DNA of 64,000 nucleotides from Stegostoma tigrinum (lineage: Eukaryota), in assembly GCF_030684315.1 (NCBI RefSeq), contig NC_081391.1:13493342-13557341 (forward strand), written 5' to 3'. The notes below the pieces were generated by a model. That model did not search any database, was not told the origin of the DNA, and saw nothing but the letters and a program-made list of their open reading frames with translations. Positions 2,057-64,000 of this stretch are shown one piece after another (within the stretch, counting starts at the first letter, position 1; each line of letters starts with the position of its first letter). Made by a program: the position numbers and the translations under genes.

Positions 2057-3350
2057 ATGTCCTACTTTGACCGGGATGATGTTGCCCTCCCCCATGTCTC
2101 CCAGTTCTTCCAAGATCAGTCCCAGGAGAAGCAGGAACATGCAGAGAAGCTGCTGAAATTCCAGAATCAGCGTGGAGGCAGAGTCCTCCTCCAGGATGTG
2201 AAGGCTGGTGTTGGGTTTTTGGGGTGGGGGGAGTTGGGTGGTAGAGAGTGGCTGCTCCTCAGGGATGGCACAGTGACTCAGTGTTTACCATGCATGCCTC
2301 AGTGCCAGGGATCCAAGTTTTGTTCTTGGTTCTAGGCTCCAGTGAACGACTGGAGTTTACTTGTTCTTGCCATGTCCACATTGGCTTCACGGTTCAATGA
2401 CGTGTGGGTTAGAAGGATTGCCATTTAAAATGCAGGGTTACAGGAATAAGGTGGGATTGTTCACAGAAGGGACTTGTAGCGACGAACGCAGTCGCCGTAC
2501 CTGCTGATCGGGGATGAATAAAACGATGTAGTGACCTTTGTTATTGTCACCATGTGTCAAATAGCCTGTTCCCATGCTGCAGAGATTCTGAAGCTTACCT
2601 GTCCTTCTCTCCATCCCCAGAAGCCAGAGAGGGCTGAGTGGGGTAACAGCCTGCAGGCAATGCAGGTTGCCCTGGATCTGGAGAAGAATGTGAACCAGAG
2701 TTTGCTGGATCTACACCAACTCGCCACAGCCCAGACTGACCCTCATGTGAGCTTTCCCACCTCCTCGTTCTGATCACTGCTAGGCCCTCAGGGCAACACC
2801 TCATTGGTCTTTTGTAGATTAAAATTCACTGGGATACTTTGATCACAATATCATATCTGAACAGTATGTTCATTTAATCAACATTAAAACAGCTCAGCAA
2901 TGAGCTGAAATGGGAATTTGGATTCAGTACCACGAGTGATGTTGGCCACTGAATTCACTTTCAGGGCCACTTGCAGTAGAATGATCATTGTCTGTCACAG
3001 TTCAGCTCGGCTCCACTTCACAAACAACAAGGTGCATCTGGAATGTTACTGTCCTCCCTGGCGCAACATCTAGATGTCAGTGGCTTTTCCAGCTGTCGAG
3101 AGCCAGTTATGGTGGGGTCTGTTTCGCAGTGGGAATTCTGAAAATTTCCTGGATCATGCAAATGTACCAAGTTGCCATCATTCCTCTGTTGCAGCTGTGT
3201 GACTTCCTGGAGACCCACTATTTGGATGAGGAGGTGGAGATCATCAAGCAACTTGGGGACTACATCACCAACCTGAAGCGCCTGGGAGCCCCTGAGAATG
3301 GGATGGGAGAGTACCTGTTTGACAGGCTCTCCCTGGAGGACAGCAGTTAG
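2057..3350 (+). CDS. Ferritin subunit (middle/light-chain-like), array copy 1, partial: exon 2 2057-2203, exon 3 2621-2746, exon 4 3195-3350; exon 1 lies upstream of the window
   Basis: Exons translate to [11 protein letters not shown]...LLQDVK / [11 protein letters not shown]...TDPH / [14 protein letters not shown]...[14 protein letters not shown], which are ferritin signature motifs. All have AG acceptors; the exon 2 donor is GC; AATAAA at 3478-3483. Confidence 0.9.
2261..2445 (+). mobile_element. Decayed tRNA-derived SINE (HE1-like), intron 2 of copy 1
   Basis: gggatggcacagtgactcagtg...gcctcagtgccaggga head; the same insertion is present in intron 2 of every copy. Confidence 0.55.
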
Positions 3351-4878: not shown

Positions 4879-5865
4879 CGAAAGGAACAAAAACAGGAGC
4901 AGGTGGTGAGGAAAGTAAAGCAAGCTTTTCCTTTATAAGATGAGTTCCCAGATCAGTCAGAACTGTCACCAGGATTGTGAAGCTGCTGTCAAAAGGCAGA
5001 TTAATGTGGAGCTCACTGCCTCCGATCTCAATCACTCTTTGGTGAGTGCTGTCCCTGTGGGGTTAAAACTTGATCTATGTAGTTGAAGTAAATGTTTTCT
5101 CTTGAATTTAATTAACTGGGCACTCTCTCTTTGTAGATTGAGTTTTGTAGTCCTTTCCTAAATATTAATTCAGGATAAGGGCAACGTTACTATACCAATG
5201 GGGTTTGATAATGATGTACTCTGAAGCTGGGTCCCAGTTGGGCTTCAGAGATATGTGGAGGATGAAGTGTCCCTGGAGATATTTGCCACTTTGGTGTTTG
5301 AATTGGCAGTAGATGTCATTCCCTCTAAGATTACCAAATGTTGGTAGGGTTACTTCAGAAAGGTATTATATTGATCATACTGTGGGACTAGAATCACCCA
5401 CTGGCTAGTTACCCTCTTTCTGACAGGTTTAAGTATCTGATTTTATATTTGCTTGCTTTTGTGGTGATACTTAAATATCAATTCTGATATTGACAATGAT
5501 AATTCCCTATTGCAGTCTGCTGTGGCTAATCTGAGCAAACCTACTTGAGGTTAGGCTGTGAGTGACTGGTATCTGACTTTTTAAAGTAGATCTCAGCTGA
5601 GGCCTGCTTGGCATTTTGCACTCCCATCATGAGATGGGTGTGGCCTATCCCTGAACCTGTAGAAAGTTGATCTGCTTTAGTGTGTGGCGTGTTGAAGCTT
5701 CTGCAAACCATGTTTGCCTCCTGCCCCCTCACCCACACCCTGCATCCCCTCTAGCTGCTGGAGTCTGAGATTCATGGTCCAGTCTCTATGCCATCCTGAT
5801 AGGGAACAAACTGTCCCCTTTAGCCAGGTGGCAGTGAACCTGTAACTTTCCAATGGGTAGAATGT

Positions 5866-6075
5866 TTCAGACAGTAGGAACAGCAGATGCTGGAGAATCT
5901 GAGATAACAAGGTGTAGAGCTGAATGAACACAGCAGGCCAAGCAGCATCAGAGGAGCAGGAAGGCTGATGTCTTGGGGCATGACCCTTCTGAAGGTGGGC
6001 CTAGGCCCAAAACAGCAGCCTTCCTGCTCCTCTGCTTGGCCTGATGTGTTCATCCAGCTCTACATCATCGTATCT
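5866..6075. mobile_element. Short inverted-repeat Penelope-terminus element in intron 1 of copy 2
   Basis: Imperfect inverted arms (gtagagctgaatgaacacagcaggccaagc / gcttggcctgatgtgttcatccagctctac), flanked by a 15-bp target duplication caa(t/g)gggtagaatgt at 5851-5865 and 6076-6090. Confidence 0.6.
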
Positions 6076-6090
6076 CAAGGGGTAGAATGT

Positions 6091-6290
6091 GTTTGGAAGT
6101 TGTGTTGAAGTAACCTTGGTGAGTGCTGCAGGGGACCTGGTAGATAATGGACCCTGAAAGGAGGTGGTGAATGCAGTCCCCATGAAGTGGGCTGCTCTGT
6201 CCTGGATGGTGTCTGCATCTTGAATGTTGTAGCTCCACCTCCACAGACACATGGAGAATCTTCGTCACTCTCAGCTTTTGTCTGTTAGAA
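6091..6290 (-). mobile_element. Ancient LINE (CR1/L2-like) ORF2 C-terminal fragment in intron 1; paralogues at ~12925-13130, ~30475-30690 and ~47840-48050
   Basis: Minus-strand translation [13 protein letters not shown] resembles the LDTIQDKAARLIGT-type tail of LINE ORF2. Shared by several copies, so it predates the expansion. Confidence 0.4.
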
Positions 6291-8687
6291 AGAAGATGCC
6301 TCATGACAGATGGATGAAGCCCGTATAAACTCCATTTGGGAGGTGGGTACAGCTTTCATTGGTGAGCCAGTTGACGGGTTTTAATTACTGACCAGGGTCC
6401 CATTTCCCTTGGGGAACACGTGTGCCAATTATAAAATCCTTCCTATTCTCTCCTGCCACAGCTTGTCCCTACCCCGTTAAACAGACAAGAAATTTTGTTT
6501 GACTGCTTCTACATGAAGACAATAACTTCCCACCAGGCTTCCTCGACAACAAAACTCTTAGCTCCTGTTTCAAATATCAGAAGAATAGCCCTTCATAAAC
6601 CTCAAGGCATTGGATTGTGAATATCTCGGTTCGGAAGTGAGTCACATATGGGTGGACAAACAACAGAACGGTGCCAGCTGGGATAAGCCAAACTTTGTTG
6701 TCCAGCTTTGTGTTAACTAGTGACGTTAGATCAGCCATTATCTGTAGATACAGGTCACATTGGTTCTCTCTCTCCAATATTTGACCTTCCCTCAGTTTGA
6801 TTCAATTTGTTTTGTTCATGTGACCCTTGTTCTCCCCCTTCTGGATGTGAGTGCACTAATTTTAGTGTGCTATAAACTATAACTGCAACAATCCAGAGGC
6901 AGTTACTGGGTAGGTTTTCCTTTGCACTATCTTGTTGTCGCTTTCTCTCATTCGCCTCTATTATATCTTGTAGTCATAAAATATACCGTACATTCAATCT
7001 CCCTGGTTTTGAGGCCACAGAAACCTTGCTTCCTCCTGGTTATATTGTTACAGCAGTGTCTAACATGTATTTCCATGCCAGCCCCAAAGGAGCAATAGTG
7101 TTACAGCTCCCCTACTCAAGTATAGCCTGCACTCCAGCTCCTGGTGCTTGTTTCAGCTGTTTGTTTGGCACTAATATTGTCCAATTCGAATGAAGGTTAG
7201 TGAGTGCAAACATGGCTGGATACAAGAAGAGCTATAATGCTGTGCCAGGCAGCCTGAGTAATTTACTGTTTGTTTTAAGCCAAACTTTTGCCAGTTTCCA
7301 ACAGGAAATTGGGATTGTTCTGTTTGATCCCAGTTGAAGGATCTGCTGGACAGCTGGACATCATTGGGTTCTCAAACATGTTCACATACCAGGCAGTTAG
7401 TTTGCTGCAGAAGGCTGAACTAGAATTTGGAGTCAGTGCTGTGTTTAATGGGCTTTAACATGTTATCTCCCTTCCAGATGTCCTACTTTGACCGGGATGA
7501 TGTGGCCCTCCCCCACTTCTCCAGGTTCTTCAAAGATCAGTCCCGGGAGAAGCAGGAACATGCAGAGAAGCTGCTGAAATTCCAGAATCAGCGTGGAGGC
7601 CGAGTCCTCCTCCAGGATGTGAAGGTTGGAGTTGGGTGGGAGGGTTGCAGCTGTGGAGGAGAGAATGGCAGCTCTTGTGGTGCTGCTTCCTGTTGGGATG
7701 TGAAAATCCTATTTTGGCATGGCTTCCCTGTTTGATTTCTTTTGAAGGCAGTTTCTAAACAAGCCCTATTGTCCACCATGTCTATGCTGCCCACAAACAT
7801 CAAACTAGACTAACACAATTTCCTGCACTTAGTCCACAGCCGACTATCTTCTGGCATGAAGAAGTTGTTGAGATTAGGCTTCAATGTTGCTGGAGTAACT
7901 GCCTCCACTGACCCCTCAGGTAATGCATCCCATACCTCTCCCACCCTCGACTGGGTGGGTGGGTCCTCCAATCTCCTCAAACCTGTGCCATCTGGTCTTC
8001 ATGTCTGCCATGGGGACTGTGTATTGTCCATCCTCCCTGATCTTCCACACTTCCATCAGATCACCATCCCAGGCTATCCAACCTCCCTCTCATCATTGTA
8101 TTTTTGTTGTCTTTTTTTGCTTCCATCTTGGGCCAACATCCTGATGACCCTCACCTGTACCCCCTGCAGTGCCACCTTGTCCCTCTGATGGTGGTTCTGG
8201 TCACCACACTACATTCCATCTTTGGTCTGGCCAATGCTGCCATGTTTGTGGCAAGACTCATCCTTTCTACTGAGCCCCAAATCATGGAGACCAGCATCAT
8301 GTCAGCCCCTTCCCCACTCTGTCTACCTTTGCTGAACCTTGAGGGATGGACTTGGGCATTTGTTGCTTGTCCCTTTTACTGTAAGCACATTGCTCCCTTC
8401 AATGAATTAAATAGTAGTGATGTCTGATCATCCTGCTCAGACATGGATGAAGCCACCAGCACAGGTGAGACATAGATGCCTGGCCTGCAAGGTGCAGATT
8501 GGTACTCTACCTCAAGAGCCCTTGAGACTAAGGTGTCAATGTCCTGATCTAAACGCCAAATGGGCACTGGTGCAAACAGTTGAACTTTGTGTGAAATAAA
8601 TCCCTAGCCCACAATGACTTCATGCTTCAGATCAAGGATAAATGGAGCAAAGTGAAGTCACTTCACAAGTAATGAATGTGGGTTTTA

Positions 8688-8830
8688 GGGGTGGCACAGT
8701 TGCTCAGTGCCAGGGACACAGGTTTAGCTCTGGCCTCTGATGACTGGTGCTTACATGTTCAGGTTTCTTCCTACAGTCCAAATATGGGCAGGCTGCGTGA
8801 AGTAGCCATGGGGGAATTGCAGTGCGAATG
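8688..8830 (+). mobile_element. Decayed HE1-like SINE, intron 2 of copy 2
   Basis: ggggtggcacagttgctcagtgccagggac...cctacagtccaaatatg. Confidence 0.5.
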
Positions 8831-11099
8831 GCTCAGGTAAATCTGAGATCTTCTTCAGAAGGTTGATTGCAGACTCAATGGGCTGAATGGCCTGCTCCCA
8901 TGCTGCGGCGAGTCTCTGATTCTGAAGCTTAACTGTTCCTGTTTCCATCCTCAGAAGCCTGAGAGGGATGAGTGGGGTAACAGTCTGCAGGCAATGCAGG
9001 TTGCCCTGGATGTGGAGAAGAATGTGAACCAGAGTTTGCTGGATCTACACCAACTCGCCACAGCCCAGACTGACCCTCATGCAAGCTTCACCTCTTCATT
9101 CTCATCACTGCCATGCCTCCTCAACTTCATTGGTTGGTCTTTGTGGAGTGGAAATTCACAGACGTAACTTTGTCCAGATGCTACATTGTACCTTTGTCAT
9201 CATAATTATGATGACAATGTTAAACTGCTCAACACCGAACTGAAATAGGAATTTGGATTACAGTCTGGTGGGAATGCTGATGTGATTTTTGGCTGTTGAA
9301 TTGGGGATTGTTGCACTATACAATACAACTTGGAGCTCTTTAAGAAGGTGAGATGAAGCAGCTGAAATGTCCTCACTGGCACAAATTCTCCACCTGTTAG
9401 CTAGATTTTCAGGGATGTCTAGAACTAGCTATGGCTCAGTCTTTTTCAGTAGGAATTGTGAAGTTGTCTTGGATAGTATAAATGTACCAAGTGTCATATT
9501 CCTCTGTTGCAGCTGTGTGACTTCCTGGAGACTCACTATTTGGATGAGGAGGTGGAGATCATCAAGCAACTCGGGGACTACATCACCAACCTGAAGCGCC
9601 TGGGAGCCCCTGAGAATGGGATGGGAGAGTACCTGTTTGACAGGCTCTCCCTGGAGGACAGCAGTTAGTGTGGCCTGGAGTACTGTCTGCTTGTTCTGAA
9701 TGTATTCCCCACTTCACCCTGGGCAACCCGTCTCCTTCCAGGGAGAAGAGGCTTGTAGCAAAGAATAATGGCTGTACCAGCTGAATGCAAATGAATAAAA
9801 TCATTTATGATCTTGCTTATTGTCCATCATTCAGAGCACTGGATATTTTGGGAAATGTCTTATTGAGCTTGAAGGCAGTTCTCTTTCTGTAATTTGGCTG
9901 ACCCAATTACTAATTGGACATGAAAACAACCTTTCAATGGATGTATTTACTCACTCTCGATCATTGCACAGTAACTAGACGGACTTCCTTTTTCTCATGA
10001 CACAGGAGACTCAAGACTTTCCCCTCTAAGTAGGATGAGGTTGGTGTTTCCCCAATTGTGGGGTGGAAAATCTTCCAGAGGTCAATTAGTACAGTTCTGG
10101 ATACTCTAGGTTCAATTGTCGATCAGAACTTGTCTTCCTTTTTGAGACAGGAAGTTCCCGTACCTGCTCGAAGGGATAAACCAGACGCCCATTCCATAGG
10201 ATGTGGGATATCTACGTTCAATGCCAGGTTTCCCTTCCTAAAGGCTCCCCTCAACCACCACGAGCAATGAGATTTGTCACTCGGACGATAATCTAATGGG
10301 AAGACAAGTCTGTGATTTGGAGGCTGGATCAGTTGACAAAATGCTGGCGGAAGTAGATATATCAAGTTCTGCTCTAAATCCAGTTGCAGGAACCAGCTAA
10401 GTTAGGAAAGACACAGGCTTGACTCATCTGGTGTAACCTCCCCAGTGAGGCCCTACCATGACCAGTATTTTCTATTCTCAGCATTGTTGTTTTTGGTCTC
10501 CTGTGAATGTAGCCTAGGGATCTTGGAGCCGGTTATGGATCAAAGCAGGACCAGCACTGGAGGCCTGTGACCTTCTCTTTCTCCCCATCTCTTGTTCCAG
10601 CCAACTGCAGTTGCACCCCCTACCCAGTTAAATCCCTCTTGACATTTCTGAGGGAGGGTGGCTGGACTCACTGTGGGTTGGCTTTTTCATTCCTCCATCT
10701 GAGTAACATAGCCCGCTCCATCTTTGCTCAAGAAGGAGTCAGTTCACACTGGGGCTGAGCTTTTCCCAAGAGCAATCCAAAATTGTCTTTAATGTGGCAT
10801 CCTCCCCTTCTTCCTCCTCCTTTCTCCACCACACCCCCCTTCTCTCCCAGCATTCACTCCAACAAGCTGCCCAGCCCAGATCTGGGAAAATTCAGCCCAA
10901 CCGTTCACAGAAGCCACTTACCAAGAGGTCAGCTGGAATTCCCCTGATCTGTATGGGATTCCAATGTCTGCTCTCGATGCTAACAACAGGAAGTTTTAGT
11001 TTTTGCTGTAGAATCCCTCAATGCGGGCAGATGCCATTCAGCTGATTAAATTTGTAATGACCTACTGAGCAACCTCCTGCTGAGGGACACCCTATTCCC

Positions 11100-11589: not shown

Positions 11590-11782
11590 TGCACAGGAGG
11601 TCAAAGGTCATTCAGCAATTCCATCATCCACCAGTTGTCAATTCTGGTTTCTGGATCCAATTCCCATCCTGCACTGATTGGACGTGGCAACTGATCAATT
11701 GATTAACAAGAGTGATTGGCCATCACTGATGATGTCATTTCCTGCTCAAAAAATGAGGGTCTTCTCCTGGAGTATAAATAGA
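11590..11782 (+). promoter_or_regulatory. Promoter of ferritin copy 3
   Basis: AGGTCAAAGGTCA 11598-11610; ATTGG at 11677 and 11715; ACGTGGCA at 11682; TGATGTCATTTCCTG 11730-11744; TATAAATA at 11773. The block is conserved ahead of 7 copies. Confidence 0.75.
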
Positions 11783-11875: not shown

Positions 11876-14800
11876 ATGGCCTCCCAGATCAGTCAGAACT
11901 ATCACCAGGATTGTGAAGCTGCTGTCAACAAGCAGATTAATGTGGAGCTCACTGCCTCCTATCTCTATCAGTCTTTGGTGAGTGCTGTCCCTGTGGGGTT
12001 GGAGTTACTTCTGTTATGAAGTGAACTGTTTTTTTTTTAAAACAAACTAGATTAATACTCTTGTATAATAAAATGTGAGGCTGGATGAACACAGCAGGCC
12101 AAGCAGCATCTCAGGAGCACACGTTTAGCTTTTGTGCTCCTGAGATGCTGCTTGGCCTGCTGTGTTCATCCAGCCTCACATTTTATTATCTTGGAATTCT
12201 CCAGCATCTGCAGTTCCCATTATCTTTAACACTCTTGTAGACTTGTTTGTTTTTTTTTGTATCTCTCTTAGCTATTTCTTGATTCAGCGTAAATGTGGTG
12301 ACAATGGGATATGATACTGATATGCAGCAACTGAGGCCCCAGTTGTCTCAATGATATATGGAGGGTGAAGCATCTTGTGATTTATCTTACAATTCCTTTT
12401 AGGGCTGTGATTGCCTATAACTGGCTGTGGCTCTCCATAATTTTCTAAACTACTGTCAAGCTTTGATCCAGATAACCATTGGCTAACTACCTTTTTAAAT
12501 CTGCCTTGATGTATCTGCTTTAATTTTGTGCATGTAAATAAACAAACATACTGGTTTTGGTATTTACAATAAGGTGTTGTAGTAATTTGACAAATCAGAT
12601 TTTTTTAAGCTGAACTGAAGTCCTTGAGGTAAGACAAGCTGCTCCCTGCTTAAGTAGGTCTCCGATATTATTTTGGCTTTCTGTGCTCTATATCATGAAG
12701 TGGGTTTGATCCATCACTTCACAACCTATAGAAAGTTGACTTGTTATAGGTGCCTGCCCCCCCCGAACCCCCCCCGCCCCCAAAAGGGGGCTGCTGGAAC
12801 ATGCTGAGGCTATTGACCCAGAGGTGAAGAAATAAATGTTCTTCCTTTACCATTTAACCAGATAAAGAAACAAACTGGCTCCTCCCACCATGTGGTGGTG
12901 CCCCTGTGCCCTTCCAAGGAGTAGAATGTGTTCAGAAGGTGTTGAGGTCCCCTTGGTGAGTGCTGCAGGGGACCTGGTAGATAATGGACCCTGAAAGGAG
13001 GTGGTGAATGCAGTCCCCACGAAGCAGGCTGCTCTGTCCTGGATGGTGTCTGCTTCTTGCACGTTGCAGCTCCACTTTTCTCCAGACACATGGAGAATAT
13101 TCATCACTCTCTGGGCTTGTGCCTATTGGAAGGAAGTCCTATCTAGGGACATGAGGATAAAGTCCCTATAACTACCTTTTTGGGAGGTGGGAATAGCTTT
13201 AACTAGTGAACCAATTGTTGGGTTTTAGTCACTGACCACTGTCCCAACTCAATAGGGAATCTTGTGTGCTGATAATAAAATCCCCACTATTCTTCACCTT
13301 CTACAACTTAACTACCCAATTAAACCACTTTTTTAACTTTTAGTTTGTATTTGAGGATTAAACTAACTTCTCACCAGGATTCTACCAAAGAACAACTTCT
13401 TCTTTTGATGTCAATAGACTGTTCCTAATCAGCAGTAACTTGTTGGATTGTGAATCTCAGTTGAAAAGTGAGTGAAATGAGTGGGGAAAACAATAGTTTA
13501 GCCTCTTGGAATAAGCTAAATTGAGCTCTCCAGCTTTGAACAAGTCAACAATCTATAGGTCACACAGTCCTGCAGATACCATTAGGTCTCCTGAACATTT
13601 GATCTTGTTTCAGTTGTGAATTTTAATGCTTTGCTTTGCAAGCTTCTGGCAACCTGAGTGCATGGCATAAACAAATGTGATAAACTATTGCTGCAACAAG
13701 CCAAAGGCTGTCACTGGGCAGGCTCTCCTTTAGCACCAAGATTCTCCTAATCGCCCTCATTCTCCTGCATACTGCAAACAGCATCTCTTGTAGAGCTGCT
13801 TTATGTAAAAAAAAAAAACAGTACATCTGATCCAATTGGTTGCAGAAGACCTGTACCGACCAGCTATATTAATGTCCAGCATCTGCATGTTACTCGAGCA
13901 CCAGGGGAGACATGTAATGACTTGAAGTTGCCTGACCCTGTGCACATCCTGCATTCCAGCTCCTGGCACTTGTTTAAACCCTATTCAGTTACCACTTCCA
14001 TCCATTTCTGGAGGCTAGATGGTAGAAATGTGCTTTCAGCTTTTCTCTCCAGGCTGTGCCAGACACCCCCCCCCAAACAATTCAGCAGGGTTTACAAACC
14101 AAAACACTGAATTTGCATCTTACGTGGAAGAAGCTGGGGTTGTTTGGTTTCCTCCAATTAAAGGAGCTGCTGGCTAATTTTGCAACACCATTAGTGAACA
14201 TTGTAAGGTGTCAACAATTTTCAGCTGATTGAATCATTAGTTTGCTTTAGACTAAACCAGTCCTCCAGTTCTGAGCATGAGAAATGGGGTCAATGATGTG
14301 TTTAATGGGCTTTAACATGTTATCTCCCTTCTAGATGTCCTACTTTGACCGGGATGATGTTGCCCTCACCCATGTCTCCCGGTTCTTCAAAGATCAGTCC
14401 CAGGAGAAGCAGGAACATGCAGAGAAGCTGCTGAAATTCCAGAATCGGCGTGGAGGCAGAGTCCTCCTCCAGGATGTGAAGGTTGGAGTTTGGGAGGGGG
14501 GCATGGTGTGGTGTGCAGGAATGGTAGCTCATGGTGTTTTCTGTTAGTAGTGACAAGATTTTCATGTGGTAAAGGATGTGAAGGTTGGAGTTGGAGAAGG
14601 CAGGCAGTGGGGAGGAGATGTGAGAAATGGCTGCTTATGGTGTGGTTTCATGTCCTGAAAGAAAGTGAAAACTGTTTTGTTTGGCTCCCCTCCTTTTGAT
14701 GAAAAGGAAAGAAATCCTAGAAACAAGCCTCTTGGCTCCCCTCCACCTGCTGCTTTCCCCCCCCACCCACCCCCCCCCCACCACCATGCTGACCCGATAA

Positions 14801-16729
14801 ACACCAAACCACATTAATCCCATTTACTGCACTTGGTCTACAGCCCCCATGGCATTGGTAGTTGTCTAGAAGCTGCTTAAATATTGCAGCAGGAGATGCC
14901 TCCCCCACTGCCCCACCCCCCCCCCATATTATTTTTCCACTACCCTCTCGGCAAAGGATTCCTCTAACCTGCTTACTCCTCACATCAGTGCCCTCTGGTC
15001 TTAATGTCTCTTTCTCCCCACCCCCTCATAGCAGACACTCCCCATCTACTATCAAGACTCCACACTAATCAAATGCCATCACATAAACATCTCAACTGAC
15101 TTCACTCTGAGGATTGGAGTGAGAAATCTGATCTCTCCTTTTAATGGATTTTTCAGTCTTGGGGCAACATCCTGGTGACCCTTCCAGTGCCATTGTGGCT
15201 CTGGTCACCACACAGTATTCCACCTTTGCATGGCCAATGCTGCAAAGTTTGTGACAAGACTGGAGTCCCTGTACTGCGCCCCAAGAAATGGGGAAGGGCA
15301 TTGTGGAAGCCAACTTCCCCATCCTGTCTACACTTATGGATCCTTGAAATATCTCTAGTCTTGTTCTCTTGGTTCCTTTTATTGTCAACATATTGCTGTC
15401 CCTTCAATGAATTAAATAGTAGTGATGCTTTTGATCATTCAGGTCAGTCCTATATGAAGCCATAAGCACAAGTGGGACTTCAACCTGGGCCTATGCTCCA
15501 AACCTAGGGACAGTACCACTGCATTACGAGCCCTGGGATTAAGTTGTGAATATCCTCCTTGGGATGCCATCAGATGGGCACTGACAATTCTGTGCAAACA
15601 TAACTCTTATCCCCACTATGACCTGGTTGTGAATTGACTTTCCTTTCGGAAGAAGCAAATAGGGCTAGGTGAAAGCAATTCCTTAAATAACTGATCTGTT
15701 CTTCCTAAGGACTTCAGGGATGGCGGTGGTTAGCACAACTGCATCAGTGCTTGGGGCACAAGCTTAATTCTGGAGTTGACATGTTCACCGCATCTCTACA
15801 TAGGCTTCCTCCCACAGTCCAAAGATGTGCAGGGTAGGATAGGCCATGAAAAATGCAGGATTACATGGCTGGGGCTAGGACCAGGTTGGATGCTCTTCAG
15901 ATGGTCATGAGTGGGCAGAATGGCCTGATGCATGCTGCAGGGATGTTGTTTCTGAGGCTTACCTGTCCTTCTTTCCATCCTCAGAAGCCAGAGAGGGATG
16001 AGTGGGGTAACAGTCTGCAGGCGCTGCAGGTTGCCCTGGATCTGGAGAAGAATGTGAACCAGAGTTTGCTGGATCTACACCAACTCTCCACAGCCCAGAC
16101 TGACCCTCATGTAAGCTTCACCACCTCCTCATTCTCATCACTGCTAGACCCTCAGGGCAACACTTCATTGGTTGGTCTGTGTGGATTGGAAATTCACAGG
16201 TGTGCACTGATCACTTTGGGTCCATGCTGCTGAGCAGTTGTTACATGGTGATCAGTAATGAAGTGAAATGGGAGTTTGGAAGGCAATCCATTGGGAGTGA
16301 TGAAGTGATATTGGCCATTGAATTCCCATTCTCACTTGGGAGCATTACAGTGGAATGATCATTGTCCATCACCATCCAACTCAGCTACACTTCACAAACA
16401 GCAAGATGGAGCAGCTGACATCCTATTGTCTTCACTGGCACAGATTTTCCAGGTGTTAGCTAAATTTTCAGGGCTGTCTGGAACTAGTATGGTAAAGCCT
16501 GTTTTTCAGTGGGAATTCTGAAATTGTCTTGGATAGTGTTAATGCACCCAGTTGTCATATTCCTCTGTTGCAGCTGTGTGACTTCCTGGAGACTCACTAT
16601 TTGGATGAGGAGGTGGAGATCATCAAGCAACTTGGGGACAACATCACCAACCTGAAGCGCCTGGGAGCCCCTGAGAATGGGATGGGAGAGTACCTGTTTG
16701 ACAGGCTCTCCCTGGAGGACAGCAGTTAG
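11876..16729 (+). CDS. Ferritin subunit, copy 3, intact 176 aa: exons 11876-11977, 14335-14481, 15985-16110, 16574-16729
   Basis: [34 protein letters not shown] plus exons 2-4 in frame; GT-AG introns; TATA at 11773; AATAAA at 16857-16862. Confidence 0.93.
12065..12225. mobile_element. Short Penelope-terminus element with a perfect 57-bp inverted repeat, intron 1 of copy 3
   Basis: Arms 12065-12121 and 12133-12189 are exact reverse complements; flanking duplication ttaa(t/c)actcttgta at 12052-12065 and 12226-12239. Confidence 0.7.
15717..15860 (+). mobile_element. Decayed HE1-like SINE, intron 2 of copy 3
   Basis: gtggttagcac...cctcccacagtccaaagatgtgcagg. Confidence 0.55.
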
Positions 16730-18319
16730 TGTGGCCTGGAGTACTGTCTGCTTGGTCTGAATGCATTCCCCACTTCACCCTGGACAACCTGTCTCCTTCC
16801 AAGGAGAAGGGACTTGGAGCAAAGAATGTAATGGCTGTACCAGCTAAATGGAAATGAATAAAATCATGTATTGATCTTGCTTATTGTCCATCATTCAGAG
16901 CTCTGAATACTTTGGGTGATAGCTCTTGCTTGAAGCCAATTCGTTTTCTGTCATTTGATTGGTCCAATTTCTAATTGGATTAGGCAACCCTTCACAGAAT
17001 AGCTCACTATCCCCACATTAGAATGTAACTCGATGGAGTGTTTTTTTTTTTGGTTAGTCCTGTGGAAATTGAAGGTGTTTCTCCTCCAAATAGGATAAGG
17101 TTGGGATTTGTCAATTGTGGCATTCTCCCTCTTCTAGAGGACAATTAGTGCGCTTCTGGATATGGTGGGTTCAACTGTAGCTCAAAGAAATTGTCTTCCT
17201 CTGGTGACAGGAAGTTCCCACACCTTCTAAATAGACTTCTCTACCCAGCCTGATAGAATTTGGGATAGTGGTGTTCAATTGCACATTTCCCTTAATCTCT
17301 TCCCCGCCTCAGCCATCCTGCGTACTCAATTATTGCCTGAATGATGACAGCAACACAAAGTGAAGACAGCCCTTTATCTACTGACCCAGCTGCCTGATCA
17401 CAAAGGTCTAAAGGAAGAGGCCCAGCAGGCTCTGATTTCAATCCAGCTGGCGGAAGCAGCAGAGGTGTGAAACAATCTCGACTGCCTGGTATATCTCTTT
17501 TTTTTTTCCCCCCATTGGGCCCTACCCTGACCAATAAACACTATATTCTCAGTATTGTTACTTTTGGTTTCACCATCCCAAACTGTGGCTGGCGCTCTTT
17601 CTCTTCCGCTTCTCCTCACTTCTCTCACCCCGCCCTCCCCCCACCCAACCTTTTCTATCCACGTGCCCCCACCAGCCTAAACATTCACCACAGCCCCTTT
17701 CCCTGGGAGTCAGCTCCAGACGTTCACCTGAACTGTACTGGATTATAATGCAGGGCCTCATTGCTGCTTACAGCAGGATAACAGGGACCTGGGAAGAACA
17801 CAGCAATGCACCTGGTTAAATGCTGCTGTTTGATTGGCTCTTGTTGCTAATGCCAGCATTGAGCACACTAAGCTGCTCCTTTGGTTCCTCTGAGCTTTCC
17901 CCCATGGTGAACATTACTCCTGATGCAGGTTGATTGGGTGATATCACATTGAAGGAGCAAAGTGGCTCGGAGGAGACATGGAGATGCTGACTTTCCTTTA
18001 CGGCTGCTTCTTTTATCTTTCAAGGTGTCAGAGATCATGGGTTCATGAGGGGGCTATCAGAGACATCCTGAGGATTGTTCCAGGGAGTTTTGTAGCGAGT
18101 GCACACTGCAGCCTTCATCGAGGTTGGCTGGGGTGGGGGGGGGGTGCTGCAGAGTCAAAAGGCACTCAACATATTTGTTCCACCACATAAAGCAATTTAT
18201 TTTTGGTGACAATAAGTCTTGGCTACAGTAACCCTCAAGTGCAGGAAGGGACCATTAGGCCCATTAAATCTGCATCGACCTTCTGAACAGCATCCTCCTT
18301 AGACCCAACCCCTTTGCCT

Positions 18320-20065: not shown

Positions 20066-23000
20066 ATGGCCTCCCAGATCAGTCAGAACTATCACCAGGA
20101 TTGTGAAGCTGCTGTCAACAAGCAGATTAATGTGGAGCTCACTGCCTCCTATCTCTATCAGTCTTTGGTGAGTGGTGTCTCTGTTGGGTGAAACATACTT
20201 CTGTTCTGTTGAAGTGAACTCTTCCCCTTGGATGTAATTAAGTTGTCTATCTTATAGACTGAGTTTTGTGGCTCCTCCCTCTTTCTCAATGCAGGATGAG
20301 TGTGATGTTACTGTAACAATAGTTTGGTGTCTAATGTTACTCTAACTTGGGTCCCAGTTGGTTGTCAGTGAGATGTGGAGGGTGGAGTGTTCTTGTAGTT
20401 ACTTGCCTGTCCCATGATGGTGCTGTGACTGGTGGTAATTATAGCTTCCTGTGGCTGTTTGAAACTTGAGGGAACAAAATTAAAAATGAATTGGGACTCA
20501 CCATTGTGGGAATGGAAGCACCATCAGCTAGTCACTGCTTTTCTTGTATCCTTGTTTCTATTTGAATCTTGTGGGGATCTGAAGTAAACCTGCCAATTGT
20601 GACTGAGAATCTTGGTTTCCTATTGCAATCAGCTTAGAATAGGCTTGTTCTAGCCCTACAGTGATGGGCCGAGAGGTGGCAAATGGAGTTTAATGCAGAC
20701 AAGTGTGAGCTGATGCACTTTGGTAGGAGTAACCGGAAGGCAAAGTACAGGGCTAATGGTAAGATTCTTGGTAGTGTAGATGAGCAGAGAGATCTGTGTC
20801 GATAGGTAGACACGGATTGTTGAAAGTTGCCACCCAGGTTGACAGGGCAATTAAGGCAGTGTTTTGTCTTTTATTAAGAGGATTGAGTTCTGGAACCAAG
20901 AGGTTATGGTGAAGCTATCCAAAAACTCTGGTGCATACAGTTCTGGTCACTGCATTATAAGGATGTGAAGCTTTGGAAAGGGTGTAGAGGAGATCTGCTA
21001 GGATGTTTCCTGGTATGGAAGGAACATCTTATGAGGAAAGGCTGAGGGACTTGAGGCTCTCTTCATTAGAGAGAAGAAGGTTGAGAGGTGACTTAATTGA
21101 AACATATAAAATAATCAGAGGGCTAGTTCGGGTGGATAGGGAGAGCCTTTTACCTAGATGGTGATGGTGAGCATGAGGTGGGGTAGCTTTAAATTGAGGG
21201 CTGATAAATATAGGACAGATGTCAGAGGTAGTTTCTTTACTCAGTAAGGGAATGCAATGCTTTGCCTGTGACAGTAGTAGATTTGCCCACTTTAGGTACA
21301 CTTACGTCATCATTGGATAAGCAAATGGGCGTACATGGAATAGTGTAGGTTAGATGGGCTTGAGATCAGTATGACAAGTCGGCACAACATCAAGGGCTGA
21401 AGGGCCTGCACTTGGCTGTTATGTTCTATGCTCAGATCAAACTGGGTGAGGTTGTGACTCTTATCTGATTAAGCAGATCTCCATTTGAAATCTACCTTGC
21501 TTTTCTTCATACTCATGAGGTGGGTGTGGGCTGTCTGTATGTCAAGTGTTGGAGCTTTTCAAAGGCACAGCACTGCCATGGGGCTGAGAATGTACTGACC
21601 CAGTGACTTTGGTTAAAAAGTTTATGCCCATTGTATTTGGCCTGATTGTAAACTAACTGGACCCTCTTTCCCCAGGTGGGGTGCTTGTGCCCTTCCAAGG
21701 GGTAGAAGGTGTTTACGTAACCTTGGTGTTTGTTGCAGGGTGCTCTCTGGGCTTGTCCCTGTCAGCAGGAAGTCCCCCTCCTGATGAGGATCAAGCCCCT
21801 GTCAGCCCCAGTTTGGGAGGGGGAACAGCTTTCATTGAGCCAGCAGTTGGGTTTTAATCACTGACCCATTGTCCCAACACACCTTGTAAGCATGTGCCAG
21901 GAATGAAATCCTTACTATTCTACATCTTCTAACTGCACATTTAAATCGCAAAGATAAATTGTGCTTGTGTTTGCATTTGAGAATTGAAGCAACTTTTTTC
22001 AGCAGGATTTGTAAGAATGTGCTTGTTACTGGCTGCTTCCAATAGCAGACCTGCTAAACCTCAATACATTGAATTGTGAACATCCTGGTTTAGAAATCTA
22101 CAGGACTTTGCCTGTTGGATTAAGTCAACAGTGGTTTTTCCAGGTTAATGAGGGATCTTGTCTGGAGAGTAGTTGATCTGCAGATCACTGTCATATTTGT
22201 CATGTGATCAGTTTGTTTTGTCAGTCTTTGTTTCATGTGTAATGGTACAAGTTGCTAGCAGTCTGAGTCAGTGCAGCTGTTTTAGATGCAACAATAAACT
22301 GTTGCAGTAACAACCCAAAGGCTGTCCTTAGGCAGGCTTTCCTTGGCAGATTCTTGGAGCTAACATCCTTCATTCATCTCCTCATGCCCCCCCAGCCACC
22401 CCAATACTGCAGTTCTTGTCAAACTAATAGATACAGTGCATCCAATTGCATTGATCCTGACTCAGCAGAAAATGTGCTTCTTCCAAGCTGTTAATTGCAG
22501 TGTCTAGGATCTGTTTTCTGGTCTTTGCCAAAGCAGCAATACAGTGCCCTGCAGCTGTTCTATTGGTGTACATCCTGCACTCCAGCCCCTGGCATTTCTT
22601 GAAACCCGATTCAATCAAAGATTTATCCCATTTCTGGTGGAGGTTAATCAGTAAAAACATCAATTCACACTTGTTCTCACCAAATGCTGTGCCAGACCCT
22701 CCTGGGCAATTTGCCTGGAGTTTCAAACCAAAATAAAACACATGGTATTTACAACTTACTGGAGGAAGCTGGGATTGTTTTGATTTTTCCAATTCAACAG
22801 CAACTGCTCAAAACTGGGTTCTGAATTGTTAATGCATCAGGTACTTAACAGCTTATTGTCAGTTTGATTTTGAGAATGCTCAAGTAGCCCTGTAGTTCTG
22901 AACTGAAATTGGCCCATGACTTGTTAATGGACTTTACCTTGTTCTCCCTTCCAGATGTCCTACTTTGACCGGGACGATGTTGCCCTTCCCCATTTTTCCC

Positions 23001-25224
23001 AGTTCTTCAAACATCAGTCTCAGGAGAAGCGGGAACATGCAGAGAAGCTGCTGAAATTCCAGAATCAGCGTGGAGGCGGAGTCTTCCTCCAGGATGTGAA
23101 GGTTGGAGTTGGGTGGGGTGGGGAATGGGATGGTAATGGCTGCTCTTGTGGTGTGGTTTCAAGTCAGTGACAAGGTTTTCATTTGAGTCAAAACTTTGTT
23201 CAGCCTGTTTGATCTCCTTTTTGAAGCCAGTGTGGAAAGAAGCCCTTTGGCCCACCATGTCTATGCTGACCCCACAAACACGAACAACATTAATCCCACT
23301 TACCTGCCCTTGGTCCACAGGCCACTGTCCTGGCACTAAGTATTTGTCCAGCTGGACCCTAAACTGATCTGGAGTAGCTGTCTCCACCACCATCCAACCC
23401 TTTATGTGGTTCATCTCATATTTCAAACAGCCCCTCAGAGGGGTGGGGGTGGGGTGAAGTTTCCTCCAATCCCCTCTAACCTGCTTACTCCTCAAACCTG
23501 GTTTCTCTCCTGTCTTGGTGTCTGCCATGGGAAGACATTCCATCGACTGGCCACTCTCTATTCTTCAATTACATCAGGTCACTCCCTCAGCTGTTCCTGC
23601 TCCACAGAAAATCCCAGCCTATCTAACCTCCAATCAATGGATCTTGGGCAACAGCCTGGGGAACCTCACCAGCTTCCCCCTGCAGTGCCATCCTGTCCAG
23701 GTGACTGGTGAGGCCAAAGAGGAATAATGTGGTGACCAGAAAAACAAACTGAGGAGACTGGTCCCCTTCCTGTTCCACCACACCCAACTAATAGAGGTTG
23801 CTTGCCCTCTGTCACTGTTACACCCTGTTGACCTTGTCTGAACTTTGAGGGATCTATGGTTGTGGGCCTTTCTTAACTGTTAGCAGCACAACACACTTTG
23901 CAAACACCTCGCTGTCCCTTTGATGAATTAAATAGCCGTGATGTTTCTGATCATCCTGCTCAGGCATGTATGAAGCCACCAGCACAAGTGGTACTTGAAC
24001 CTTGGCCTTGTCAGCCAGAGACAGGGGCACTACCACTGTACCATGACAGCATTTAGGATTCACTTGTGAATATCCTCGCAATTCCATCAGATGGACCCTG
24101 ATGCAAATCTTGTCATTATCCCCCACAATGACCTGTTATTCACCTTCCTCCTTCAGATCAAGGACCGACAGGCAAGGTGAAAGCAATTCTGAAGGAACTG
24201 TTCTTCAGCTGTGCTCCAGGGCTGCCTCAGGGGCTAGCAGTGTTCTCAGTGCTAGGGACACAGGTCTGGATCTGGCCTCTGGTGAGGGACTGGTGTTTAC
24301 ATGTCCACCCCATGTCTGCGTTGGTGTCCTCAGAGTATAAGAGGATTGGCCATCTGAAATGCAGGGTTACAGGAATAGGGTGGGAGAAGGACGAGTTGGG
24401 ATCCTCTTCAGAGCAGTTACAGACTGATCCACGTTGTAGAGATTCTGAAGCTTAACAGTCCTTCTTTCCCTCCTCCAGAAGCCAGAGAGGGATGAGTGGG
24501 GTAACAGCCTGCAGGCAATGCAGGTTGCCCTGGATCTGGAGAAGAATGTGAACCAGAGTTTGCTGGATCTACACCAAGTTGCCACTGCCCAGGCTGACCC
24601 TCATGTAAGCTTCACCTCCTCATTGACTTCACTGCTAGGCCCTCAGGGCAACACCTTCATTGGTTGGTCTTTTGTGGATTAGAAATTCAGTTAGACTTTG
24701 TTTTTGTGCAGATGACATGGATCACTTCAGATCCATAGTGATTACAAAATCATTGCTGAGCAGTTGACTCCAAGTATGTATTTTAACTTGTAAACCTGTG
24801 GGGAGGACTGAGGGGATATTGGCGACTGAATTCTCATTCAGGGCCACTGCAGTGGAATGACTTTTATCCATCACAAGTCAACTCTGCTCCAGTAAATAAA
24901 CAGCAAGATGAAGCAGCTAAAAAGCAGTTGTCCTCTTTGCACAATTTCTCCAGGCGTTGGCTCTAGTCATCCCTGACAATCTCCCTCCATATGCATGTTT
25001 TTCAGTGGGGATTCTGAAGTTGTCTTGGATAGTGTTGATGTACCAAGTGTCATATTCCTCTGTTGCAGCTGTGTGACTTCCTGGAGACCCACTATTTGGA
25101 TGAGGAGGTGGAGATCATCAAGCAACTTGGGGACTACATCACCAACCTGAAGCGCCTGGGAGCCCCTGAGAATGGGATGGGAGAGTACCTGTTTGACAGG
25201 CTCTCCCTGGAGGACAGCAGTTAG
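20066..25224 (+). CDS. Ferritin subunit, copy 4, intact 176 aa: exons 20066-20167, 22955-23101, 24479-24604, 25069-25224
   Basis: Four in-frame ferritin exons; GT-AG introns; TATA at 19972; AATAAA at 25351-25356. Confidence 0.93.
20656..21430 (+). mobile_element. 5'-truncated CR1 LINE (end of ORF2 + 3' UTR), intron 1 of copy 4
   Basis: Decayed [10 protein letters not shown]...QFWS...LRGDLIE motifs; ends in an atgttctatg microsatellite tail. Confidence 0.85.
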
Positions 25225-29680: not shown

Positions 29681-32600
29681 ATGGCCTCCCAGATCAGTCA
29701 GAACTATCACCAGGATTGTGAAGCTGCTGTCAACAAGCAGATTAATGTGGAGCTCACTGCCTCCTATCTCTATCAGTCTTTGGTGAGTGCTGTCTCTCGG
29801 GGTTAAACATATAAATCTGTTCTGTTGAAGTAAATTCTTTGCCTGGCCTCTAGTGAAGCTGACAATCTAGTAGATTGAGGTTTTGTGGCTCCTACCTAAA
29901 TATCAGTTCAGGATAGAGGTGGTGTTACTGTCACGATGGTGTAGGATACTGATGTATGTTAACTCAGGTCCCAGTTGGCCTTCAGTGGTATCTGGAGGGT
30001 AAAAGCCTCTTGCTTTTTTTCTTTCTGACACAAGTTTCCTGACTTCATTTGCCTGATCTCTGTGGTGGTCCTAAACAAACATGCTGATTTTTTTTAACAC
30101 TGACAATAACAATAACTTCCCTGTTGCAGTGGCCCTTGTTAGTCTGAACAAACCTGAGGCTAGTCTGTGACTGGTATCTATTTTATGTAGATCTCCTTCA
30201 TTGAGGCTGACTTGGCTTTACTTGCATTTATTCAAGAGGTGGGTGTGGCCTATCCCGTCCCCACTGAGAGTTGATCTGCTGTGTGTGAGAAATGTTGGAT
30301 CCCCTCTTTGCCCCCTCTCCAACCCACCCCACCCCACACTGGGGCTGCGGGAATGTGCTGAGGCTATTAGCCCAGTGACATTGAAGAAATGGAGGTTGTT
30401 CCCAGATCATTTAGGTTGACCTAAAACAAAATGTCCCCTCTATCCCGGTGGTGATGTGACTGTGCCCTTCCAAGGAGTAGAATGTGCTTGGAAGGTATGT
30501 GTTGAAGTAACCTTGGTGAGTGCTGCAGGGGACCTGGTAGGTAATGGACCGTGAAAGGAGGTGGTGAATGCAGTCCCCATGAAGTGGGCTGCCCTGTCCT
30601 GGATGGTGTCTGCTTCTTGCATGTTGTAGCTTCCCTTCTACAGACACACGGGGAATATTCATCTCTCTCTGGGCTTGTGCCTATTGGAAGGAAGTTGTCT
30701 TGTAATGAGGACTAAGTCCCTATAAGCCTCACTTGGGAGGTGGGACCGCTTTATTGGTGAGCCAGTTGTTGGGGTTTAATCACTGTGTCCCAACTCTATT
30801 GGCACATGTTTCCCAAGGATAAAATCCCGACTATCTTCTGCCACAACTTGTAACTACCCACTGAAACCACAGATATTTGCTTGCCTGACTGGTTTTTGGA
30901 TTTGAGGATTAAAGTAACTTTACAGGAGTCCTTCCCCAGAATGTAATTCTTAGCTGATGCTTCCAATAGCGAGCATTAGCTCTTAAACCCTAACATCGAA
31001 TTGTGAACATGACAGTTGAGATGAGTCACATGGGCTGAAAACCTACAGGATTTTTTGGCTGTTTGGGCAAAGTCAGGGCAAGTGTTTTTCCAGGTTACTG
31101 TTTTCACTAGTGACGTTATGTACAGGCCACTAATATTTGACATTTGATCATTTGTTTTGCAATTTGTTTCAGTCATGTGACTTGGTGCAAGCTTTTGACA
31201 GCCTGAGTTTGCACTATTTAGGCAGAGCAATAACCCACTGCTGCAACGATCCAAAGGCTGTTACTGGGCAGGCTTTCCTCGGCATTATCTTAGTGCCAAA
31301 CTCCATACTGGAGACAGCACACCTTTGTAGAGTTCATGTGTACACTTACATCCCAATCTCATTGATCCTGGGTTTGCAGAAAAGATGCTCCCTACTAGTC
31401 GTTGACTATAGCAGGGTTTCAACATCTTTTTTCCAGGTTTCCCCAAAGGCAAAACGTAGTGCCTTGCGTCTTGTAGTTGAGAACTGGAATGGGGAGTGAG
31501 CCAGTCATGTCTGATGTAATTTTAACTTGATCTTCCAGATGTCCTACTTTGACCGGGACGATGTTGCCCTCGCCCATTTCTCCCGGTTCTTCAAAGATCA
31601 GTCCCAGGAGAAGCGGGAACATGTAGAAAAGCTGCTGAAATTCCAGAATCAGCGTGGAGGCCGAGTCCTCCTCCAGGATGTGAAGGTTGGGGTTGGGTGG
31701 TGGGGGAGTGCAGGGGGGAATGGCTGCTCTTGCGGTGTCATCTCCAGTGACAAGATTTTCCAGATCCTGAACGAGTGTGAGATGTTCTTTTGCTTGGCTT
31801 CCCTGTTTGCTCTCATCCATCTCCAGTGTTTCAGCATTTATGCAAGCCCTCTGGTCCACCAGGCCTATGCTGATGCAGCAAAGACCGAACTGTACTCACC
31901 CTGTTCTTGGTCCAGGCCCTACTATACCCTAGTGTTTAGCACTCGCCCAGCTAGTCCTTTTAAACAGTGCTGCAGTAGCCGTTTCCAGCACTTTGTTCTT
32001 CCGTTCCCCAACACACCCACCAAATTTCCTCCAATCCCCTCTATCCTGCTTCCTCAAACCTGTGCCCTCTGGTCTTAGTGTCTGCCATGGGGAAGACATT
32101 TTCCCCATCTACTGTCCAGACTTCCTTGTCTTCCATCAAACAACCACCTCAGCCTCACCTGCTCAAAGGAAAACCCCCAGCCCATCCAATCTCTCTCCTC
32201 ATTGGTTTTCTGTCTTGGGGAAACAACCTTGGGACCCTCACCAGCACCCCCTGCAGTACCATCCTGTCCTTCTGACCAGTGAGGCCAACGATAGAATGCA
32301 GCAGAGACCGGAAGAAGAATTTTCATAAAATGTGTTCAAAGGACTTGTCCCTGTGCTGTTCCTCACAACCCTGCCCCAAACTAACACATGTTACTTGGCC
32401 TATGTCCCCTTTCACACACAGTTTGCCTTGTGTGAGCATTGAGGGATCGATGATCCTGTGTTTATTGTAAGCACATTACTGCCCCCCACAATGAATTCAA
32501 GTAATGATGGTTCTGACCATGCTGCTCGGGCATGTATGAGGCCACAAGCACAAGTGAGACTTGAATCTCAGCCTTGTCAACCGAAGCTTGGGACACGACC

Positions 32601-33839
32601 GCTACTTTCCCCACAGCCCTTGGGATTCACTCCTGAATATCCTTTTTAAGACTCCAGCAGATGGACACTGGTGCAAATGACTAATCTGGTACATATTTAT
32701 TCCCTGTGGTACAAGGATATGTTCCTGAACTTCCGGCTTCAGGTCAAGGATAAATGGGGCAAGGTGAAAGGAGTCACCAAGTAGCTAATGTTTTCTTTAT
32801 CTGGACTTCAGGGATGGCACAGTGGCTCAGTGGTTGGCACTGTTGACTCAGTGCCAGGGGCACCAGTTTGGTTCTGGCCTGTGACGAGAATTTAAACGTT
32901 ATCCCAAAGCATGGCTTCCCCACACAGTAGAAAAGAGGATTGGCAACTTGAAATGCAGGTTACACGAACAGGGTGGGAATGGGACCAGATGGGATGCTCT
33001 TCAGCAGTTATGGTCTCAATGGGGTGAATGGCCAGCTCCCATGCTGCAGGGATTCTGTTTCTGAAGCTTACCTGTCCTTCTCTCCATCCCCAGAAGCCAG
33101 AGAGGGATGAGTGGGGTAACAGTCTGCAGGCAATGCAGGTTGCCCTGGATCTGGAAAAGAATGTGAACCAGAGTTTGCTGGATCTACACCAACTCGCCAC
33201 AGCACAGACTGACCCTCATGTAAGCTTCACCTCCTCATTCACATCACTGCTAGACTCTCAGGGTAACGTTTCATTGGTTGGTCTGTGTGGATTGGAAATT
33301 CACTGATGTAACACTTTCCATCCATTACTTTCCTGAACTATTGTAACATTGATCACTTGGGATCATACTGATTACAATGAGGTATAAGGGGAATTTGATC
33401 TATAATCTAGTGGAAGTGCTGAAATGACGTTGGCCACTGAGTTCTTCATTAGTATCATTGCAGTGGAATGATCATTGTCCATCACAATCCAACTCAGCTC
33501 CATTTCACAAACAGCAAGATGGAGCAGCTGACATGTTGTCCTCACTGGCACAAATTCTCCAGGTGTTAGCTCGCTTTTCAGGGCTGTCCAGAGCTAGTCA
33601 TGGCTAAGTCTGTCTTGCAGTGGGAATTCTGAAATTGTCTTGGATAGTGTTAATGTACCAAGTGTCATATTCCTCTGTTGCAGCTGTGTGACTTCCTGGA
33701 GACCCACTATTTGGATGAGGAGGTGAGGATCATCAAGCAACTCGGGGACTACATCACCAACATGAAGCGCCTGGGAACCCCTGAGAATGGGATGGGAGAG
33801 TACCTGTTTGACAGGCTCTCCCTGGAGGACAGCAGTTAG
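29681..33839 (+). CDS. Ferritin subunit, copy 5, intact 176 aa: exons 29681-29782, 31539-31685, 33094-33219, 33684-33839
   Basis: Four in-frame ferritin exons (exon 4 variant DEEVRIIK...[10 protein letters not shown]); GT-AG introns; TATA at 29588; AATAAA at 33967-33972. Confidence 0.93.
32810..32970 (+). mobile_element. Decayed HE1-like SINE, intron 2 of copy 5
   Basis: gggatggcacagtggctcagtggttggcactg (A box). Confidence 0.55.
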
Positions 33840-63927: not shown

Positions 63928-64000
63928 ATGGCCTCCCAGATCAGTCAGAACTATCACCAGGATTGTGAAGCTGCTGTCAACAAGCAGATTAATGTGGAGC
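63928..64000 (+). CDS. Ferritin subunit, copy 9, start of exon 1, truncated by the window end
   Basis: ATG GCC TCC CAG ATC AGT... = [24 protein letters not shown]; TATA at 63835; upstream region nearly identical to copy 5. Confidence 0.88.
   Translation, partial: MASQISQNYHQDCEAAVNKQINVE

Follow-up and report, generated by a model that had tools for sequence, protein, structure and literature searches.

An amplified array of K62 ferritin genes without iron-responsive elements in Stegostoma tigrinum, likely encoding ferroxidase-deficient subunits

Results

The K62 gene and its array

The window analyzed in this study, a stretch of 64,000 nucleotides of Stegostoma tigrinum DNA, carries eight ferritin genes arranged head-to-tail on the plus strand at a spacing of approximately 8.6 kb, and the third of these copies is the gene under study (Table 1). 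Its four exons match the layout of vertebrate cytosolic ferritins, and joining them at GT-AG boundaries yields a product of 176 amino acids. In human heavy (H) chain numbering, the complete ferroxidase centre of H and middle (M) chains consists of E27, Y34, E62, H65, E107 and Q141; here K62 and E141 are found instead at two of these sites, and I144 is also present. The initial annotation, placed at 14335..16729, had captured exons 2 to 4 of this gene and left out exon 1, which holds E27 and Y34. Its description of the residues was confirmed, as K62 occurs in 8/8 exon-2 copies of the window and HYLDEEV in 8/8 exon-4 copies, and the human light (L) chain residues quoted for comparison (Y27, K62, G65, E141 and L173) are visible in the alignment with PDB entry 5lg8.

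The assignment of the lysine to position 62 is secure. Residues 2-175 of P0010, a Stegostoma protein 96% identical to the product, align over an equal span to residues 6-179 of human H-chain entries, and in an alignment of 42 chains the lysine sits in the E62 column without gaps. The nearest proteins are those of carpet sharks (93% identity for Chiloscyllium), and database entries for relatives carry the labels 'heavy subunit-like' or 'middle subunit-like', a mislabelling that had been foreseen. The fold is that of the Ferritin family (PF00210): the alignment-based model of P0010 has a pLDDT of 89 and five helices, namely the four-helix bundle and the short helix E. Because there is no N-terminal extension, the chain is probably cytosolic.

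The genes belong to a tandem array of 1.42 Mb (G000:C50:12.98-14.41 Mb) that was read throughout. Matches to exons 1 to 4 numbered 169, 169, 167 and 167, and the assembly has about 168 tandem K62 copies. Unit calling returned 172 units, including 164 with four exons (112 intact, 52 broken) and 8 incomplete ones, two of which are splits made by the calling itself. The 112 intact genes represent 96 distinct coding sequences (CDS) and 82 proteins. K62 is present in all 112 and in 168 of the 169 exon-2 matches, the remaining match being deleted at that site. Also invariant amongst the intact genes are E141, E27, E64, E107, L173 and the three-fold channel residues D131 and E134, and H65 (108 genes), Y34 (107) and E61 (107) are nearly so. 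Thus, the claim that the other ligands are retained stands for E27 and E107 and needs to be relaxed for Y34 and H65. Position 57 is D in 64 genes and H in 48. The ratio of nonsynonymous to synonymous substitution rates (dN/dS) is 0.28 across 600 random pairs of the 96 distinct CDS, and 0.27 among five genes with E62; the K62 array is under purifying selection. Within the array, 87 of 172 positions vary. Identical lesions occur repeatedly, which points to recent block duplications, so that the number of copies may be too high owing to very recent events or to assembly. In the open reading frames flanking the array on either side there were repeats and no nameable gene, with no Pfam scan made there.

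Transcripts

The K62/E141 genes are transcribed and spliced, giving mRNA in many variants. This conclusion follows from run X6 (kind unrecorded), in which exons are covered and introns are not, GT..AG joints are found at all three introns (the exon 1/2 joint at 11976/14334), and no alternative letter reaches 8% at 14407, the first base of codon 62. At 16610, C accounts for 3,234 of 4.86 million summed depth, and 3,559 contigs lie over 136 bases. Splicing was read from the contigs. Runs X7-X9 continue into the intron, as DNA would.

Intronless broken retrocopies were also observed at L033 (C11), L034 (C5) and L039-L040 (C2). One of them, at L039, carries K62 and E141, which indicates that genes of this type are transcribed in the germ line.

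Other ferritin genes of the genome

The 5' iron-responsive element (IRE), a hallmark of H and M chains, is absent from the K62 array. None lies between the core promoter block and the ATG of the studied gene, none was found in the window with Rfam, and a stem-loop scan that does detect the IRE of the H gene found none upstream of the 112 intact K62 genes or of six genes of a second array. A genome-wide search gave two matches among 82 scored candidates, both in single-copy E62 genes that serve as positive controls: the H gene on C20 and an M-like gene on C50 (21.609 Mb). Each of these has the full centre. The M-like gene (C50:21,607,265-21,609,459, minus strand; L174:7265-9460) lies at the edge of the second array and is probably the one that serves as the conserved somatic gene there.

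The second array (C50:19.95-21.6 Mb and C216, L021-L030) runs in both orientations, keeps E62 and Q141 and includes at least 130 exact motif matches. Neither this sister array nor the missing IRE had been part of the initial annotation. L173 is also present in 5/5 genes built from the E62 array, which are ferroxidase-intact, and L173 is thereby ruled out as an L-chain marker in this genome. Promoters of five of six E62-array genes align with K62 promoters better than all 100 shuffles, a level not reached by the promoters of genes H, M-like, X and Z.

RUVBL2 (C50:18.55 Mb) and BAX (C50:26.43 Mb), which in human are neighbours of FTL, lie on the contig of the K62 array at 4.1 Mb and 12 Mb from it. 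By this measure every ferritin on C50 belongs to the M/L region, and none is singled out. For glycogen synthase, a stricter first look gave no match on C50, and matches on C20 and C33.

Further ferritins were observed on C50. Ferritin Z (21,659,128-21,670,211, plus strand; L179:9128 to L181:211) is divergent, with four exons, K27, no E62, Q107 and N141. It is a second ligand-less chain. In PDB searches frog L ranked second and fifth for it, with scores near H; these matches are suggestive of an orthologue of the frog lower subunit (bullfrog L). Ferritin Y (21.5914-21.6019 Mb, plus strand; L184:1370 to L174:1906) has introns and an Arg/Leu-rich N-terminal extension, as in Heptranchias P0036, that could be a mitochondrial targeting peptide. 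Additionally, human FTH1 R23, a residue described as crucial for NCOA4 binding (PMC11076521), is matched by Lys in most copies of both arrays (11930-11932 in the window; exon 1 in the E62 array).

Features of the window

The remaining copies of the window are listed with the parts of the studied gene in Table 1. Copy 2 differs in its upstream sequence, and its N34 is found in five intact-frame genes of the whole array. Between the gene units lie inverted interspersed repeats, approximately 75% alike (28186-28840, 36962-37622, 45441-45831 and 62526-63096), which are likely retroelement pieces.

Table 1. Parts of the studied gene and neighbouring ferritin copies in the window, with the first base or range of selected codons in parentheses.
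Feature	Position	Strand	Remarks
Core promoter block	11716..11781	+	TGATGATGTCATT element; TATA box at 11773
Exon 1	11876..11977	+	ATG, E27 (11945), Y34 (11966); outside the initial annotation
Exon 2	14335..14481	+	helix B; Q60, E61, K62 (AAG, 14407-14409), E64, H65 (14416)
Exon 3	15985..16110	+	helix C; E107 (16045)
Exon 4, coding part	16574..16729	+	D131, E134, E141 (GAG, 16610-16612), L173 (16706), stop
Polyadenylation signal	16857..16862	+	AATAAA, first after stop
Copy 1	2057..3350	+	exons 2-4; exon 1 upstream of window
Copy 2	4940..9668	+	open frame; N34; GC donor in intron 3
Copy 4	20066..25224	+	intact
Copy 5	29681..33839	+	intact
Copy 6	38476..42868	+	pseudogene; 2-nt deletion in exon 2
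Copy 7	47313..51455	+	pseudogene; stops in exons 2 and 3
Copy 8	55113..60293	+	intact
Copy 9	63928..64000	+	exon 1 start only

Distribution across sharks and origin of K62

Protein trees of 85 and 89 rows were built with 84 of 218 and 88 of 291 proteins, full-length and non-redundant, picked by eye, and the 46-row sets are subsets of these. The K62 chains form one clade (support 100/99, 85-row tree) spanning six shark families, with members in Heptranchias, Heterodontus, Scyliorhinus, Mustelus, Carcharodon, Cetorhinus and carpet sharks, and they are multi-copy in several other sharks. Lamniform members carry E60. E141 occurs in the carpet-shark members whose sequence reaches the site. Because 31/31 listed K62 chains outside carpet sharks (one filed under a bacterial name) keep Q141, Q141E is, on these sequences, a late change in carpet sharks that parallels tetrapod L, and E141 is ruled out as the ancestral state. 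Isolated K62 residues were also found in unrelated clades, in an M-like chain of a lizard (Elgaria P0120) and in an E62-clade chain of Heptranchias (P0073); the K62 codon is one transition from GAG. No ray, chimaera, coelacanth or ray-finned fish member of the clade was among the matches listed (best 120 of 2775 and best 120 of 2107). The shark-like ferritins P0088, P0240 and P0243 are filed as Aeromonas or Salmonella and are likely contamination of bacterial records.

In all four unconstrained protein trees the shark E62 array is the group that the K62 chains join, with support of 98/86 (85 rows), 92/83 (46 rows) and 84 (89 rows), and of 80 after removal of columns 62 and 141. The maximum-likelihood phylogeny proposed in the initial annotation therefore parts shark K62 from tetrapod L when left free, but a constraint joining the two is not rejected. 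At the DNA level, the synonymous divergence (dS) between the two arrays is 0.72; against the M-like gene, which has a comparable third-position GC content (GC3), it is 1.13 and 1.22, and against H it is 2.7 or saturated. In an 11-row DNA tree the K62 and E62 arrays are sisters (98/98) to the exclusion of the M-like and H genes, which have IREs, and a grouping of E62 with M is rejected (p 0.007). The two arrays also have the alignable promoter block and the lost IRE in common. With linear scaling of dS, and unless conversion intervened, placing the K62-E62 divergence before the bony-fish split would push the separation from the M-like gene implausibly far back. Of the two origins that had been offered, an ancient L-type change or convergence, the protein trees leave both standing and the DNA evidence narrows the choice towards the latter. 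Altogether, we consider it probable that K62 in sharks and in tetrapod L is convergent.

Discussion

Comparison with known ferritins

The oocyte light chain of Xenopus (Swiss-Prot Q7SXA5, P0291; P0182 in X. tropicalis) has E27, Y34, K62, H65, E107, E141 and L173, exactly the combination seen here, and this ligand combination was thus already known. It is 62% identical to the shark chain, groups with tetrapod L, has E57 and E60 of its own and forms a cluster of five sequences with no array seen, whereas shark K62 is an array. The subunit had been called an H/M-to-L intermediate. This status is ruled out by the late, carpet-shark-restricted Q141E, by L173 in ferroxidase-intact chains and by the Xenopus ligand set.

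Mammalian FTL carries an IRE, in contrast to the shark array with its ~168 copies and none. Mammalian L (PDB 5lg8) shares K62, L173, E107, E61, E64 and, with carpet sharks only, E141, but has Y27, G65, E57 and E60 where the shark chain has E27, H65 and Q/R60. Frog and teleost M chains (e.g., PDB 1mfr) are the best PDB matches (E 1.5e-83) and agree in exon structure and chromosome context; they have E62, Q141 and an IRE, which in this genome are features of the separate single-copy gene at C50:21.61 Mb. According to Lee et al. 2014 (PMC4117605), teleost M chains are orthologues of tetrapod L, all five salmon genes have IREs, fish have H and M chains, and ligand-less L chains are found in tetrapods.

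Tandem ferritin expansions in two or three clusters have been described in the Greenland shark. Yang et al. 2026 (PMC13214024) reported 59 copies of 'FTH1b' on one chromosome in clusters of 55 and 4, with functional similarity assumed from the fold, and Sahm et al. 2024 (10.1101/2024.09.09.611499) described FTL/FTH1 clusters with more copies than the Yang count. The word 'ferroxidase' occurs 0 times in the text and five supplements of the former as available, and the relevant passages of both papers neither separate E62 from K62 nor mention an IRE. No shark K62 or ferroxidase-deficient chain was found in the literature, most subscription papers lying outside the search. Both the ferritin expansion in sharks and this set of ligands were known before, and the conserved, IRE-less, amplified K62 clade appears to be undescribed.

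Proposed function

We propose, at a rough probability of 55%, that the gene is a unit of an amplified IRE-less array that likely originated in the cartilaginous fishes, from the ancestor of the E62 array, and likely encodes a ferroxidase-deficient chain, acting as a co-assembling L-like partner, probably in the oocyte. A salt bridge between K62 and E107 exists in mammalian L, and Lys62 may pair with E107 here as well. In human H, E62 is a ligand of both iron sites, and E62K combined with H65G abolishes activity (PMC6929972). Lys62 would remove this common ligand, and judging from the residues ferroxidase activity is likely lost or strongly reduced. Iron would enter through the kept D131/E134 channel and be oxidized by E62 subunits with which the K62 chains would co-assemble; high copy number without an IRE would allow bulk synthesis independent of the iron level. 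Q141E is the more recent of the two changes, acquired by carpet sharks as a parallel to tetrapod L. Because the L-type nucleation triad E60/E61/E64 (PMC13411386) is incomplete, the chain may be more of a stabilizing or diluting partner than a strong nucleator. An oocyte or egg iron-storage role is likely by analogy with another species, as a large ferritin cluster of the Greenland shark is expressed specifically in the ovary (Sahm et al. 2024, 10.1101/2024.09.09.611499); additionally, the ovaries of vertebrates are rich in ferritin mRNA (PMC1488847).

Alternative explanations

Several observations weigh against this proposal, and those concerning origin speak for shark K62 as a true FTL orthologue. 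In that case E62K would have arisen in the ancestor of jawed vertebrates, and early conversion or promoter capture would account for the resemblance to the E62 array. Monophyly of K62 with tetrapod L was not rejected by approximately unbiased (AU) tests (p 0.33, 0.28 and 0.51), the constrained tree was better by 0.36 in log-likelihood in the 89-row analysis, and the sites shared exclusively with one group number four for L and three for shark E62 chains. I8, L37, S52 and K62 are held in common with L, and RUVBL2 and BAX are on C50. The locus also has other old paralogues, one of them like bullfrog L, which points to early diversification. The gap in synonymous differences (pS) is not significant alone, being at or below zero in 11% of 500 bootstrap resamples, and gene conversion could mimic a recent ancestry of the two arrays. 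Orthology to FTL is nevertheless rather unlikely, considering that dS to the E62 array is unsaturated and the promoters are alignable, that no IRE is found here and salmon M chains have one (PMC4117605), that the matches listed include no ray-finned fish, coelacanth or chimaera member, and that basal K62 members carry Q141.

Concerning catalysis, the published knockout is a double mutant, and no literature on single E62K or Q141E mutants was found; in the shark chain H65, E27 and E107 stay, and E141 adds a carboxylate. A slow M-like chain with useful ferroxidase activity, in which E27/H65 hold one iron and E107/E141/Y34 the other, would fit the near-complete retention of these residues in the array and the ligands kept across sharks. 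We regard it as improbable, since E62 serves both iron sites, H65 has been lost in several members from other sharks (replaced by R or C in Heptranchias, by R in a Cetorhinus chain and by Y in a Scyliorhinus chain), and with half of the array positions unvaried, invariance is weak evidence. Position 60 is Q in 102 intact K62 genes, R in 10 and E in none, so the L-type triad is not complete, and, as for the oocyte, run X6 has no recorded tissue and the ovary result comes from another species without a tie to the K62 array. Lastly, the broken and incomplete units, the recurring lesions and the redundancy of intact CDS, which indicate recent block duplications, would suit a mostly neutral birth-and-death amplification, or in part assembly over-expansion, with little function. 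With the dN/dS observed, many-variant spliced transcripts and multi-copy K62 genes in several other sharks, the little-function part of this explanation is largely refuted and the whole is very improbable.

Significance

A conserved shark K62 clade means that L-type inactivation either preceded the split between sharks and bony fish or evolved twice by the same substitution, and either origin changes the account of the division of labour between H and L chains. Additionally, the published shark ferritin expansion mixes two IRE-less gene types, predicted to differ biochemically and labelled heavy or middle in databases. The copy numbers, about 168 K62 units and at least 130 E62 motif matches here vs 59 in the Greenland shark (Yang), bear on the reading of this expansion in terms of longevity and ferroptosis.

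More tentatively, and at less than even odds, the K62 chain may be a second, shark-invented light chain, which arose by an independent E62K in an IRE-less, ovary-directed lineage and to which carpet sharks added Q141E and an amplification of approximately 170-fold beside an E62 array amplified to an equal degree. If so, the K62/Q141 and K62/E141 chains of present-day sharks would represent natural stages in the loss of ferroxidase activity, the two arrays would supply an iron-independent two-subunit egg ferritin, and the expansion, which the literature has linked to longevity and ferroptosis, would instead serve to provision eggs and be partly catalytically silent.

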